Shown: piece after piece, positions 1 to 12,112 of the stretch
Numbering within the stretch: position 1 is the stretch's first letter
Layout: each line of letters begins with the position of its first letter
IMG/VR virus record: IMGVR_UViG_2728369607_000007
Coordinates: 1 to 50,260 of that record
DNA: 50,260 nt
From: a virus
Taxonomy: Duplodnaviria > Heunggongvirae > Uroviricota > Caudoviricetes
Reading direction: 5' to 3' (one strand)
Position numbers and translations under genes: made by a program
Notes under the pieces: model-generated
The model's database searches: none
Seen by the model: the letters and a program-made list of their open reading frames with translations, nothing else
What the model was told of the DNA's origin: nothing

Positions 1-1509
1 AGCCGTCTTAACCATCCGAAAGCGGACCTGTCAAAGGGGCAGTACGGAACCGTGGGGCAGGGGCTGCATATCGCCAAAAAACTGCTGCCGTTTATACCGG
101 CGAATGCGGGTATTCTGCTGGTTCCGTGCTGTCGTGGTGGTTCAGCGTTCACCACCGGAGCTGATGGCACATACAGTGACGCTGGCGGTGCCTCGGAGAA
201 TTCAGCGCGCTGGGGTGTGGACAAGCCGCTGTATAAGGACCTTATCGGTCGAACAAAAGCAGCACTGAAGAAGAACCCGAAAAATGTGCTGTTTACCGTG
301 GTGTGGATGCAGGGGGAATTTGATTTTGACGGCACGCCCGGAAATCACGCAGCACAGTTTGGTGCGCTGGTTGATAAATTCCGTGCAGACCTGACGGATA
401 TGGCAGGTCAGTGCGTTGGTGGCTCTGCTGGCGGTGTTCCCTGGATATGCGGGGACACGACGTATTTCTGGAAGCAGAAGAACGAATCCACGTACCAGAC
501 GGTGTACGGCAGCTATAAAAACAAAACGGAAAAGAATATCCATTTCGTACCGTTCATGACGGATGAGAACGGGGTGAATGTGCCGACGAACAAACCGGAA
601 GAAGACCCGGACATTCCGGGTATCGGGTATTACGGTTCGAAATGGCGTGACAGCTCAGCCACCTGGACGTCACAGGACAGGGCGAGCCATTTCAGCACCT
701 GGGCACGCCGGGGGATTATTTCCGACCGTCTGGCAACGGCGATTCTGATTCATGCGGGACGAACCACAGTAAAAGTCGATGCTCCATCTTCTGAAACTGG
801 CGCACCGACGCCATCACCGTCAGAAAATGAAGCGGTAAGCACAACAACACTGCTGTCTTACCGTGCCAGTGAGTCTGAAGGGAGGCTGACCGAACAGGGC
901 TGGAGTGCTGGCGGAGGTAAAGCGGAAATTGTTGCCGATGAAGGTGCAACAGGTGGTACCGCGATGAAGCTGAGCAAGGAGACAGGAGTGGGGTCATGGT
1001 ATCTGGAGCATGATGCCGGTACTGGCGCTGAACTGCTGAAAAATGGCGGTTTAATCAGCTGCCGCTTTAAGGCATCCGGTGAACTGGTAGCAAATCAGTA
1101 TGTCATTGCACTTTACTGGCCGGTTTCCTCTCTGCCGCAGGGTGTCACCCTGACAGGGGATGCAGGGAATAATCTGCTGGCAGCGTTTTACATCCAGACA
1201 GATGCAAAAGACCTGAATGTGATGTACCACAATGCGAAGGTGGCGACAAATAACCTGAAACTGGGAAGCTTTGGCGCATTTGATAACGAATGGCATACGC
1301 TGGCTTTCCGCTTTGCCGGGAATAACAGCCTTCAGGTGACGCCGGTTATTGATGGTCAGGATGGCACACCGTTCACGCTGACGCAGTCACCGGTCAGTGC
1401 ATTTTCGGCGGATAAGTTGCATGTGACAGATATTACCAAAAGTGCGACTTACCCGGTACTGATAGACAGCATTGCGGTGGTAGTGAATAACGCGGACGCC
1501 GCGGCATGA
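1..1509 (+). CDS. Prophage sialate O-acetylesterase-like protein (SASA/NanS-type), 5-prime truncated by window edge
   Basis: Reading frame open from nt 1 (no stop upstream of the GTG at 52); sequence resembles prophage esterases found upstream of lysis genes in lambdoid phages; position just before the holin. Confidence 0.5.
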   Translation, partial: SRLNHPKADLSKGQYGTVGQGLHIAKKLLPFIPANAGILLVPCCRGGSAFTTGADGTYSDAGGASENSARWGVDKPLYKDLIGRTKAALKKNPKNVLFTVVWMQGEFDFDGTPGNHAAQFGALVDKFRADLTDMAGQCVGGSAGGVPWICGDTTYFWKQKNESTYQTVYGSYKNKTEKNIHFVPFMTDENGVNVPTNKPEEDPDIPGIGYYGSKWRDSSATWTSQDRASHFSTWARRGIISDRLATAILIHAGRTTVKVDAPSSETGAPTPSPSENEAVSTTTLLSYRASESEGRLTEQGWSAGGGKAEIVADEGATGGTAMKLSKETGVGSWYLEHDAGTGAELLKNGGLISCRFKASGELVANQYVIALYWPVSSLPQGVTLTGDAGNNLLAAFYIQTDAKDLNVMYHNAKVATNNLKLGSFGAFDNEWHTLAFRFAGNNSLQVTPVIDGQDGTPFTLTQSPVSAFSADKLHVTDITKSATYPVLIDSIAVVVNNADAAA

Positions 1510-1644
1510 TAAAAAAAGCCGCCAGTTACCGGAATGGACTGGCGGTGGTAATACCTATGGAGAAAAAATAAAGGAACGATACTTTCGTACTCTGTTTTTT
1601 TAAATGAAAACAGTTCTTATTGTCAACTATCACGGTGAGAAACC

Positions 1645-1824
1645 ATGACATTTCTGAACCAGTTAATGCTGTACTTCTGTACGGTGGTCTGTGTGCTGTA
1701 TCTCCTTTCGGGCGGATACCGGGCCATGCGTGACTTCTGGCGCAGACAGATTGACAAAAGGGCCGCTGAGAAAATCAGCGCCAGTCAGTCAGCCGGAAGC
1801 AAACCCGAAGAGCCGCTCATTTAG
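1645..1824 (+). CDS. Small hypothetical membrane protein (59 aa)
   Basis: ATG start, hydrophobic N-terminal segment (LMLYFCTVVCVLYLL); below the ORF-track size cutoff; no strong RBS. Confidence 0.3.
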   Translation: MTFLNQLMLYFCTVVCVLYLLSGGYRAMRDFWRRQIDKRAAEKISASQSAGSKPEEPLI

Positions 1825-1864
1825 CGGCAACTTTCTTAATCACATCTTTCGACGAGAAAATCCC

Positions 1865-2110
1865 ATGTCAGAAATTACATCCCTGGTCACTGCTGAAGCA
1901 GTGAAGGAAGTCCTGCGCTCTGAAGAAGTCCGGAGCGCACTGAAACAGAAACTTCGCCATAACCTGGAAGCGCGTCTTGATGCAGAAGTGGATGCCATTC
2001 TGGATGAACTGCTGGGCGCACCGGCAGCTCCGGAGCCGGAAGGCATCGCGGGTGAGGGGAGTGCTTCAGATAGCGGTGACCCCACACCTGACAGCGACAT
2101 GATGATGTAA
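1865..2110 (+). CDS. Hypothetical acidic protein (81 aa)
   Basis: Internal ATG of ORF 1691..2110; acidic C-terminus; sits between esterase and holin. Confidence 0.4.
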
Positions 2111-2187
2111 GCATTCGTCAGGGACCATCGGTGTGTGCCGGTGGTCTTTTTTATTGTTGTGAGCTTCCGGATTGCGGGAGACGGGGT

Positions 2188-2403
2188 ATGTACCAGATGG
2201 AAAAAATCACAACAGGTGTGTCATACACCACGTCAGCGGTGGGAACGGGCTACTGGTTCCTGCAGTTGCTGGACAGGGTTTCCCCGTCTCAGTGGGCGGC
2301 AATAGGCGTGCTGGGGAGTCTGCTGTTTGGGCTGCTGACATATCTGACGAACCTGTATTTCAAGATTAAAGAAGACCGTCGTAAGGCGGCGCGGGGAGAG
2401 TAG
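2188..2403 (+). CDS. S: Phage holin (S21/Stx-phage type, class II), with dual-start motif M-Y-Q-M
   Basis: Protein [26 protein letters not shown]...[15 protein letters not shown] matches lambdoid S21-like holins; RBS GGGAG upstream; followed by lysis genes. Confidence 0.85.
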
Positions 2404-2406
2404 ACG

Positions 2407-3198
2407 ATGAATAAACAATACGAACTGGTTGTTAAAGGGATAAATATTTACCCGGATAAGATTACTGTTACTGTGGCGCTGGAAACTGGTGGGTATACGT
2501 CACTGTTGTTGCCAAATGTGGTGATTGATCTTGATCGTGTTGAAGGTGCCCCGCTGGAGTTTTACGAAGCTGAGGCGAAAAAGAAGGCGAAGCAGTTTTT
2601 CATGGATATTGCTGCCGGGTTATGTGAAGGGAACGAACCGTTGCCGGAAAAGCGCCTCTGTTCAGAAGAGCGGTATACCATACAAATTAACAATGCATAT
2701 AACACGATACAGTCAGAAAAAGATGATATCGAATCACGCATTGAAAAACTGGAGAACAGCGTCGTTGAACTGAATAAAAAACTGTCGGTGCAGATCCCTT
2801 CCGAAGGTGAAAAAAAACGCCGTGATGAGCAGTTCGCGGCGTTTTACGATTATTGCCGGAAAGTGATGAGCAGAAATCTCGCAGAGTGTTTCCGTATTCA
2901 AAAAAACAGAGAGCGCTCTGCAAATAGTGAGATTCTGGATAATTTTTTAAAGGGGACGCATCTCGCCAGTGATTGTTTCATTGCTCATTCTTTTGGTGGC
3001 TTTCATGAGGCCATCAAACATGATGTTGAGAGAAGTCCAGGTATCCTCTGTTCCATTCCCGTAAGCATCGAAATAGACACAAATACGATAACCGGTGAAC
3101 TCGTTACCGCCGGAGTCGGTATATTCCGTCATGAGGGGAACGATGCCAAAGGTTCCTTTACAAAAATCGGGCCGTTCTTTCTGAAGGTAGAGCGATAG
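2407..3198 (+). CDS. Hypothetical cargo protein (263 aa) with central coiled-coil segment, inserted between holin and endolysin
   Basis: ATG 4 nt after holin stop with RBS GGAGAG; AT-rich; no family recognised; 3-prime 252 nt overlap the convergent ORF below. Confidence 0.5.
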   Translation: MNKQYELVVKGINIYPDKITVTVALETGGYTSLLLPNVVIDLDRVEGAPLEFYEAEAKKKAKQFFMDIAAGLCEGNEPLPEKRLCSEERYTIQINNAYNTIQSEKDDIESRIEKLENSVVELNKKLSVQIPSEGEKKRRDEQFAAFYDYCRKVMSRNLAECFRIQKNRERSANSEILDNFLKGTHLASDCFIAHSFGGFHEAIKHDVERSPGILCSIPVSIEIDTNTITGELVTAGVGIFRHEGNDAKGSFTKIGPFFLKVER

Positions 3199-3579
3199 TT
3201 TGTTAAGTACCCATCCGACAGCTCGCTCATTTTGGTTTATTTTCGTATCGCGAAACAAAAATTCGAAGCGGCCAGATGACGCATGGGTGCAACCAAATAC
3301 CGGGGCGTATTCATCAACCTTTGGTGTTCCTGAAAACATGCAGTCCGTGCTCTCGAATGCAGATGAATTGCTGTTGATCCACTTAACAAAAGAAAAAAAG
3401 GTCTGAATCGCTTGTCTGTCTGAATATTCAACAAAATCCTCAAGGTGTGTCTCGATCAGTTCCGGGTGTTTACGAAAGTCATAATATTGACCGGGACGAT
3501 ATTTATGAGTGGTTGTTTTATCCCATGGTTGTGCTCTGCGTCCCTGTAAACGGAGGTCTGCCGCTGGATAGATAAGCAT
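2947..3579 (-). CDS. Hypothetical cargo protein (210 aa), antisense to the late operon
   Basis: Internal ATG at 3579 preceded by GGAG RBS (7-nt spacing); diverse composition; no family recognised. Confidence 0.5.
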   Translation of the reverse strand: MLIYPAADLRLQGRRAQPWDKTTTHKYRPGQYYDFRKHPELIETHLEDFVEYSDRQAIQTFFSFVKWINSNSSAFESTDCMFSGTPKVDEYAPVFGCTHASSGRFEFLFRDTKINQNERAVGWVLNKLSLYLQKERPDFCKGTFGIVPLMTEYTDSGGNEFTGYRICVYFDAYGNGTEDTWTSLNIMFDGLMKATKRMSNETITGEMRPL

Positions 3580-3709
3580 AAGTAATCTCCTGGTGGAATG
3601 TAATCCACGATCATCCGGGGAAATTAAGAACCCGCCAGTGCCCACCACTGGTGGGGTGAAGGCTTAACATATCCAGGGATTCGGAACCGATAAATCCTGA
3701 TAAATATCC

Positions 3710-4243
3710 ATGAACACCAAAATCAAATACGGCCTGTCGGCTGCCGTTCTGGCGCTGATTGCCGCAGGGGCGCCTGCGCCTGATATTCTCGACCAGTTTC
3801 TGGATGAAAAAGAAGGTAACCACACCACGGCATACCGTGATGGTGCGGGGATCTGGACCATTTGTCGTGGTGCCACCAGGGTGGATGGCAAACCTGTCGT
3901 CCCGGGCATGAAGTTGTCGAAGAAAAAATGCGACCAGGTTAACGCCATTGAGCGTGATAAGGCGCTGGCATGGGTGGAGAAAAACATCCGGGTGCCACTG
4001 ACTGAACCCCAGAAAGCGGGGATCGCGTCATTCTGCCCGTATAACATTGGCCCCGGTAAGTGTTTCCCGTCGACGTTTTATAAACGAATTAATGCAGGCG
4101 ATCGCAGGGGAGCGTGTGAAGCGATTCGCTGGTGGATTAAGGACGGTGGCAGAGACTGCCGTATCCGCTCAAATAATTGCTATGGTCAGGTATCCCGTCG
4201 TGACCAGGAGAGCGCGCTGGCGTGCTGGGGTATCGACAGATAA
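3710..4243 (+). CDS. R: SAR endolysin (phage 21 R-type lysozyme, GH24)
   Basis: N-terminal signal-anchor-release segment GLSAAVLALIAAGAPA; E...D...T catalytic triad spacing (EGNHTTAYRDGAGIWT); strong similarity to R21-type lysozymes. Confidence 0.9.
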   Translation: MNTKIKYGLSAAVLALIAAGAPAPDILDQFLDEKEGNHTTAYRDGAGIWTICRGATRVDGKPVVPGMKLSKKKCDQVNAIERDKALAWVEKNIRVPLTEPQKAGIASFCPYNIGPGKCFPSTFYKRINAGDRRGACEAIRWWIKDGGRDCRIRSNNCYGQVSRRDQESALACWGIDR

Positions 4244-4333
4244 GCAGAATATTTTGCTGAAAAATGACGTTGGCCAACGCGGACGGATAACACGAAATCC
4301 TGCGAACTGGCAAAACCTAAGTGAATAAAAGTA

Positions 4334-11785: not shown

Positions 11786-12112
11786 ATGGCGAAAAATTTT
11801 GTACAGGACGGTACCACCATTGAACTGGTGAATGCCGGAGATCAGACCATCCTGAGCGGTGCTGCGGTGGTGGTCGGCAGTATGGTGGCCGTGGCCATTA
11901 CCGATATTCCTGCCGGTGAGGCCGGTGACGGTTTTGCCGAAGGCGTGTTCCTGCTGCCCAAACAGTCTGCTGACGACATTCAGTCCGGCGCGGTGGTTTA
12001 TCTGAAGGACGGGGTTGTGCAGCTGGCTGCAGACGGTGCGGTGGCAGCGGGGGTAGCCTGGGAAAATGCCCCTGCAAACAGCGCCACTGTGGCGGTAAAA
12101 ATCAATGTCTGA
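11786..12112 (+). CDS. Phage head protein, DUF2190-like (possible decoration/cement protein)
   Basis: Gly/Ala/Val-rich 108-aa protein following the capsid gene; family assignment from memory. Confidence 0.5.
   Translation: MAKNFVQDGTTIELVNAGDQTILSGAAVVVGSMVAVAITDIPAGEAGDGFAEGVFLLPKQSADDIQSGAVVYLKDGVVQLAADGAVAAGVAWENAPANSATVAVKINV

Follow-up and report, generated by a model that had tools for sequence, protein, structure and literature searches.

The present analysis concerned the left end of a 50,260-nucleotide stretch of DNA from a virus of the Caudoviricetes (IMG/VR record IMGVR_UViG_2728369607_000007), which is referred to below, at its full length, as the window. Positions 1 to 1509 were identified, with little room for doubt, as the 3' 1.5 kb of nanS-p, the prophage sialate O-acetylesterase gene of the lambdoid phages of the Shiga toxin (Stx) type. 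The gene is already known and sits where it is normally found, and its allele is public at 99% identity.

Identity of the gene

On the plus strand, positions 1 to 1509 form a single open reading frame (ORF) of 502 codons, which is free of internal stops, ends with TGA at 1507-1509 and is open at its 5' end to base 1. The Pfam family SASA (PF03629) matched amino acids (aa) 10-133 of the product with an E-value of 3.3e-9, and DUF6645 (PF20350) matched aa 346-464 with an E-value of 1.2e-73, both over the gathering score. Since the protein lacks its N-terminal part here, the SASA match was limited to profile positions 56-158 of 226. All 502 aa aligned with positions 139-633 of the 634 positions of phrog_143 (PHROGs), which means that about 140 N-terminal positions lie before the first base. 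Structure matches covered both halves of the protein: aa 4-249 matched residues 90-331 of NanS/YjhS, the E. coli 9-O-acetyl-N-acetylneuraminate esterase (PDB 3PT5; 6.7e-81), with 54% identity across 241 aligned positions, and aa 281-496 matched the crystallised C-terminal domain of NanS-p (PDB 6YP6; 1.4e-114). The NCBIfam search returned no model for the protein. An earlier note on this DNA, made from the letters alone, had described an esterase-like gene at positions 1-1509, and the ORF, the Pfam SASA match and the 3PT5 match agreed with it in kind and in coordinates; the domain search returned the SASA family and not an unrelated one. The parts of the gene in the window are as follows.

1 to 1509, plus strand: 3' 77% of nanS-p (502 codons and TGA), based on the ORF, Pfam, structure matches, relatives and phrog_143
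10 to 747, plus strand: C-terminal two thirds of the SASA/SGNH esterase domain, aa 4-249 (3PT5, 6.7e-81)
127 to 150, plus strand: CCRGGSAF, conserved glycine block (SGNH block II, named after PMC10462455), aa 43-50, common to NanS
304 to 324, plus strand: WMQGEFD, conserved block III, aa 102-108, the same in NanS (alignment)
676 to 696, plus strand: DRASHFS, the 'RASH' block with the catalytic histidine, aa 226-232, RSSH in NanS (alignment)
748 to 840, plus strand: Pro/Ser/Thr-rich interdomain linker, aa 250-280, recombination breakpoint (alignment with relatives)
841 to 1488, plus strand: lectin-like jelly-roll C-terminal domain, aa 281-496, DUF6645 (6YP6, 1.4e-114)

The RASH and RSSH forms are normal variants of the histidine block (PMC10462455). 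All four aromatic residues proposed for the sugar site (Y510, Y515, Y540 and F611 in the numbering of the 645-aa protein) are kept in the window protein. Every defining feature of NanS-p that falls within the window was present, namely SASA, three of the four SGNH blocks, DUF6645 including the aromatic residues, and a place in a lambdoid late region 5' of holin S, and none failed. Against nine relatives, the ratio of nonsynonymous to synonymous substitution rates (dN/dS) was 0.05-0.3 in both halves of the gene, the pattern of a gene under purifying selection.

The chromosomal NanS (YjhS, 3PT5) has a homologous SGNH/SASA domain and shares the CCRGGSAF, WMQGEFD and R(A/S)SHFS blocks. However, NanS, which belongs to the nan regulon, has one domain only and about 326 aa, whereas the phage protein family adds DUF1737 and a lectin-like domain and is encoded in a phage late operon. 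Chromosomal NanS is presumably exported to the periplasm, while a hydrophobic N-terminus is absent from the phage NanS-p relatives.

The missing 5' end

The window is the entire IMG/VR 'provirus' record of 50,260 bp, and this record starts inside nanS-p. The full-length relatives have 645-648 aa and consist of DUF1737, SASA and DUF6645. The first residue in the window is equivalent to aa 147 of the 648-aa relatives, so that about 146 N-terminal residues are outside it; the earlier note had rightly placed the 5' part beyond the window. DUF1737, which all full-length relatives have, lies beyond the record start, as do a linker and the initial third of the esterase domain. That third includes the GQSN serine block (SGNH block I), which reads LAGQSNGMSYGEG in all full-length relatives. 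In SGNH hydrolases, the GQSN block holds the nucleophilic serine. Rangarajan et al. in 2011 reportedly described this serine and the histidine of block IV/V as the catalytic pair of NanS.

Such an open end could also mean that the source copy is a genuine pseudogene, truncated at its 5' end by a deletion or by an insertion sequence (IS) and encoding an inactive enzyme. The start codon, DUF1737 and the catalytic serine are all absent from the window, IS3- and IS66-family insertions in or beside nanS-p have been documented (PMC10462455), nanS-p is split or uncalled at two of the loci compared (L011 and L012), and the cryptic prophage CP-1639 has lost nanS-p, S and R. Nevertheless, the break falls exactly at base 1 of the record and not at a junction inside it. 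The frame stays open as far as the first base, foreign sequence is absent, and the identity with intact relatives reaches base 1. Moreover, the 502 remaining codons contain neither a stop nor a frameshift, and dN/dS is low. We consider a pseudogene very improbable.

A break of the record itself accords better with the wider distribution of the gene. Matches to nanS-p were found in 1007 of 5426 complete E. coli genomes, at roughly 2,700 places in all, with a median of three copies and a maximum of eight, which is consistent with the several alleles per genome reported for EDL933 and O104:H4 (PMC8065619). It has also been reported that Stx prophages are often unresolved by short-read assembly (PMC10462455). 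Given these within-genome repeats, the poor resolution of Stx prophages and an identity with intact relatives that runs to base 1 and shows no foreign-DNA junction, a record or contig break in the conserved SASA part is the most economical explanation. The 5' truncation is thus most likely an artefact of the record or of the assembly and not a biological one.

The allele and its mosaic structure

The DNA of the full-length relatives was 97.5-98.5% identical to the window over positions 1-2411 and up to 99.2% identical over positions 1-1700. The window protein shared 99% identity with that of phage 1720a-02 (KF030445) and about 87% with the common 933W-like type. The nearest alleles are those of 1720a-02, Stx2_499, Stx2_14040 and Stx2_14744 and of the prophages of NCCP 13905, FORC_069, EH41 and 2014C-3097; except for 1720a-02, for which the 99% refers to the protein, their DNA identity was 97.5-99.2%, and most of them also have the same flanking late genes and head module. 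2014C-3097, however, has another DUF1737 allele and another head module. Unlike the window record, the records of the nearest alleles are complete and hold the 5' end with stx2AB upstream.

The comparison with the 933W type revealed an uneven similarity. The SASA part was 97.6% identical, with a synonymous divergence (dS) of about 0.11-0.12, whereas identity was 33-37% in the linker and 81% in the C-terminal domain, which jointly had a dS of about 0.73-0.74. With blastn, the break against the 933W-type genes was placed at nt 760-1057. This jump in identity and dS at the linker indicates that the gene is a mosaic with a recombination breakpoint in the linker.

The best-known members of the family, the NanS-p of the Stx phages 933W (L0105/z1466) and phi24B (vb_24B_21, i.e., gp84; 6YP6), occupy the same slot upstream of holin S and have the same three-domain layout as the full-length relatives of the window gene. 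They also share with it the conserved blocks, including RASH, and the four sugar-site aromatics, and the window SASA part is 97.6% identical to that of a 933W-type protein. On the other hand, the window linker is unrelated to theirs (about 35%) and the C-terminal domain is about 81% identical. Moreover, the closest full-length relatives of the window gene carry the D3 variant of DUF1737 (Stx2a phages of the QO111/11128 type) and not D1 or D2, and the window phage is long-tailed and lambda-like with a ClpP-capsid fusion head and not a Sepvirinae podovirus. Within the linker, TPSPSE in the window stands against TSSPSE in its nearest relative, L003, and the window lacks the 'SSP' motif. This motif has been tentatively tied to self-cleavage (preprint 10.64898/2026.04.10.717836).

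The main import of these results is for annotation: nanS-p (SASA-family sialate O-acetylesterase) is the name to use, with a flag that the gene is partial owing to the record boundary. The labels of its homologues are inconsistent for a biochemically characterised family. In GenBank, the 99% identical gene of 1720a-02 (KF030445) is mis-labelled 'mobile element protein', and the RefSeq name of most near-identical full-length homologues is 'DUF6645 domain-containing protein' and not that of a SASA esterase.

Genomic position and upstream cargo in relatives

The position of the gene agrees with its identity. A homologue was present in this slot in 347 phage records, almost all of which are Stx-converting. 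In all five relatives that were matched on nanS-p DNA (Stx2_499, NCCP 13905, 2014C-3097, EH41 and the 933W-like VT2phi_272), the gene order was stx2AB, nanS-p, DUF1378, DUF826, S, R. In each of the five, stx2AB ended 0.3-0.5 kb upstream of nanS-p, with three tRNAs, a methylase gene and Q in front of it. The same arrangement was seen at loci L009 and L014, which were found through another protein. The earlier note had stated that sialate O-acetylesterase genes sit at this place in Stx-type lambdoid phages, and the 347 records and the five relatives, with the gene between stx2AB and holin S, bear this out. It had further placed the gene in the late region upstream of the holin; this stood, with holin S at 2188-2403, except that the holin lies about 680 bp 3' of nanS-p and that DUF1378 and DUF826 intervene, so there is no direct adjacency. 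The features near the gene, together with a head gene of the same late region, are as follows.

1519 to 1546, strand not assigned: G+C-rich hairpin of 9 bp, 10 nt past the nanS-p stop (z about -2.2 to -2.5, weak)
1645 to 1824, plus strand: small ORF of 59 aa, DUF1378, conserved neighbour between nanS-p and S (Pfam, 2e-39)
1865 to 2110, plus strand: small ORF of 81 aa, DUF826, conserved neighbour (Pfam, 3e-40)
2188 to 2403, plus strand: holin S of 71 aa, P21 holin S family, PF04971 (Pfam, 7e-33)
11786 to 12112: head-decoration/cement protein (phrog_122)

From position 1 to about 27 kb, the window is the late region of a long-tailed lambda-like prophage. The order 3' of nanS-p is DUF1378, DUF826, holin, endolysin, Rz, terminase, head and tail genes; holin S is followed by a DUF1327 protein (263 aa, 2407-3198) and then by a phage lysozyme at 3710-4243. 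The region encodes a DUF1441 small terminase, a GpA-type large terminase, a portal, a ClpP-like protease/major-capsid fusion, a tape measure protein, gpJ and tail fibres. Its best matches were chromosomes of human and bovine Shiga toxin-producing E. coli and Stx2a-converting phages. Three further observations concern the segment behind the holin. The exact 263-aa DUF1327 protein is very common, as it occurred in 6353 indexed blocks beside the holins of many unrelated lambdoid prophages. Positions 2412-2765 have no counterpart in the close relatives L002, L004 and L005 and are collinear in NCCP 13905 (L003). A minus-strand ORF of 233 aa at 2947-3648 had no Pfam match.

A simple scan found no sigma-70-like promoter in positions 1-2500 and no plus-strand terminator after nanS-p, which fits, without proving it, read-through late transcription from pR'. 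The single hairpin found, at 1519-1546, has A7 in front of it on the plus strand, equivalent to T7 behind the stem on the minus strand, and hence it looks like a terminator only for antisense transcripts from the DUF1378 side. A search of positions 1-4300 against Rfam gave no matches.

Since nanS-p marks the late region next to stx, finding it at the left edge suggests, short of proof, that the source prophage was Stx-converting. The sibling locus L010 (GCA_037957245.1, 5594-9102) has the same 126-aa Q, 352-aa methylase, D3-type 648-aa NanS-p and ClpP-capsid head, and no stx genes were called in the 0.5 kb that separate its methylase gene from nanS-p. This makes it an stx-negative counterpart of the same phage type, which means that the toxin status of the source prophage is not inferable from the window. 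Taken together, the Q of 126 aa, the methylase of 352 aa and the NanS-p of 648 aa in the relatives match the QO111/11128-type group, which has been described as the sole carrier of the 'D3' variant of DUF1737 (PMC10462455). A cryptic Stx1 prophage, CP-1639 (L017; AJ304858.2, 5040-5824), has head and tail genes of the window type; its nanS-p, holin and endolysin were lost in one deletion, and Rz follows almost directly after stx1B.

Probable enzymatic function

For the homologues, esterase activity on Neu5,9Ac2 and de-O-acetylation of mucin sialic acids were demonstrated, and EDL933 and O104:H4 require nanS-p alleles for growth on Neu5,9Ac2 (PMC8065619, PMC8319020). In stx2a strains, mitomycin C raises the expression of nanS-p by 1-2.4 logs together with that of stx2a (PMC10462455). 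For the window gene, we infer the timing of expression, the substrate and the benefit to the lysogen. The best explanation of the gene would be a late-expressed SGNH esterase with a glycan-binding module, which is released by lysis and unmasks the sialic acids of mucus. As part of the late operon, nanS-p would be transcribed with the lysis genes after Q antitermination upon induction of the prophage. The N-terminus is hydrophilic in the relatives, which points to release by phage lysis and not by secretion; the protein, presumably without a secretion signal, would be set free as the cells lyse. The enzyme would then strip 7/8/9-O-acetyl groups off sialic acids such as Neu5,9Ac2 in mucin glycans, while the C-terminal domain would probably keep it on the glycans. 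The freed Neu5Ac could feed the sialidases and the sialic acid catabolism of surviving sibling cells. The scavenging of mucus sugars as prophage cargo, which the earlier note had proposed, is the published view of NanS-p (PMC8065619, PMC8319020, PMC10462455); the proposal holds with the qualification that the phi24B homologue is also a virion protein.

Several points weigh against this explanation. The GQSN serine block and the start codon are outside the window, so the intactness of this copy is not demonstrable from the record, and IS insertions in nanS-p were documented in other phages (PMC10462455). Between this allele and the crystallised phi24B type, the C-terminal domain shares only 81% identity and the linker differs. 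Finally, the benefit to the lysogen of an enzyme that is made mainly at lysis would be an argument at the level of the population.

It has been raised as an open possibility in a review (PMC8065619) that the true substrate is not host mucin but an O-acetylated polysaccharide of the bacterial surface (O-antigen or capsule), which would give the enzyme a role in adsorption or in receptor editing related to superinfection. This would resemble the tailspike esterases of other phages and would suit an enzyme that is displayed on the virion. However, the homologues act on Neu5,9Ac2 and on the O-acetylated sialic acids of mucin and allow growth on Neu5,9Ac2, and NanS, a dedicated sialate esterase, shares 54% identity with the catalytic domain. 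Furthermore, the gene is not among the tail genes, and the phi24B protein is on the head and not on the tail. We regard a surface polysaccharide as the true substrate as highly unlikely.

Possible capsid decoration and the DUF1737 alleles

A structural role may come on top of the unmasking of mucus sialic acids. In phi24B, gp84 (a NanS-p) was found among the most abundant virion proteins and the strongest bands, its DUF1737 occupies the central hexons of the T=9 capsid as a hexamer anchored by a Tyr42 loop, and the protein is cleaved after release (preprint 10.64898/2026.04.10.717836). NanS-p may accordingly be mainly structural, decorating the capsid through the N-terminal DUF1737 and showing the esterase and the lectin on the phage head, with scavenging being secondary; a head-borne enzyme could work for the phage on mucus or on acetylated glycans of the bacterial surface. 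We consider this possible, although with considerable doubt, and about as tentatively we would see the structural role as an addition to the enzymatic function and not as its replacement.

The typing of DUF1737 in 12 full-length proteins gave three types, which differ almost solely in residues 33-46, i.e., in the anchor loop. A search with the exact DUF1327 protein had provided a panel of nanS-p loci with four head types, against which the alleles could be read. All four chromosomal loci whose head was of the window-type ClpP-capsid kind had D3. Type B occurred with heads of the HK97-S78 fusion kind and with lambda gpE heads, and D1 with the 933W-type head. The window-type capsid fusion (at least 95% identity) was found in 12 phage records, and D3 in 11 of these; the twelfth, CP-1639, is without nanS-p, S and R.

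Several of these observations speak for decoration. A 933W-type relative has Y42, G54 and SISSP exactly as the preprint describes, and the differences between alleles are concentrated in the anchor loop (residues 33-46). All phage records that pair the window-type head with nanS-p have D3 (11 of 11), as do the four chromosomal loci. The modules behind DUF1737 do not follow the head: at L004, the SASA and C-terminal domains are 99-100% identical to those of the window, yet the head and the DUF1737 are others, and L010 keeps the window-type head and D3, yet has a 933W-type C-terminal domain. In addition, nanS-p would be co-transcribed with the late genes for the virion and for lysis. On the other side, the N-terminal domain is outside the window, and the direct data come from one podovirus with a different capsid protein and are in a preprint. 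The window phage already encodes a head-decoration/cement protein (phrog_122). Type B is paired with two head modules (the HK97-S78 fusion and lambda gpE), and an intact D3 is found on podoviral genomes of the Traversvirus type (the Morioka Stx1 phage and HUN/2013). The association could also mirror the shared descent of whole late regions, as the sample is small and phylogenetically non-independent.

We tentatively suggest, and think it rather doubtful, that DUF1737 is an exchangeable capsid adaptor whose loop at about residues 33-46 is matched to the head module, that esterase and lectin modules were shuffled behind it, and that NanS-p is a head-decoration enzyme in this lineage as well. Equally unsure is the pairing that such an adaptor would imply: D3 with the ClpP-capsid fusion head, D1 and D2 with the 933W-type head, and type B with gpE and HK97-type heads. 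A strict rule of one DUF1737 allele to one head was ruled out by the occurrence of type B with two heads and of D3 on Traversvirus genomes. If the adaptor reading were true, NanS-p would be a general and modular mucus-active display on unrelated capsid types and not a moron of lysogenic conversion. The association between DUF1737 allele and head module, which offers a handle on whether the capsid-decoration role in phi24B reaches other capsid types, is the only forward-looking point of this analysis.

Two phages provide a natural mismatch of DUF1737 allele and head type. The Stx1 converting phage of Morioka V526 (L016; NC_004913.3, 6501-8447) encodes an intact 648-aa NanS-p with D3 on a Traversvirus genome and is, as we assume, recombinant in origin. 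HUN/2013 (KJ909655) likewise has D3 on a genome of the Traversvirus type, and its record itself names the phage recombinant.

The remainder of the record

Not all of the record is prophage. After the tail-fibre genes, the part from about 27,100 to 50,260 holds the host genes for a YkgJ-family protein, potB, potA, pepT and roxA. The Stx-type prophage lies directly against potB, which makes potC its probable insertion site. Between roxA and phoQ lies a second element with genes for an integrase, an Icd-like protein, a RepA-type helicase, SSB, PerC, a capsid protein, a protease and a portal, as well as head-closure and connector proteins, an HNH protein, TerS and TerL. Tail genes are absent from it, and this combination of capsid and packaging genes without tail genes makes it look like a capsid-forming phage satellite. 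Rfam located two RNAs in this second element.

36183 to 36259: isrK
36281 to 36368: C4 antisense RNA

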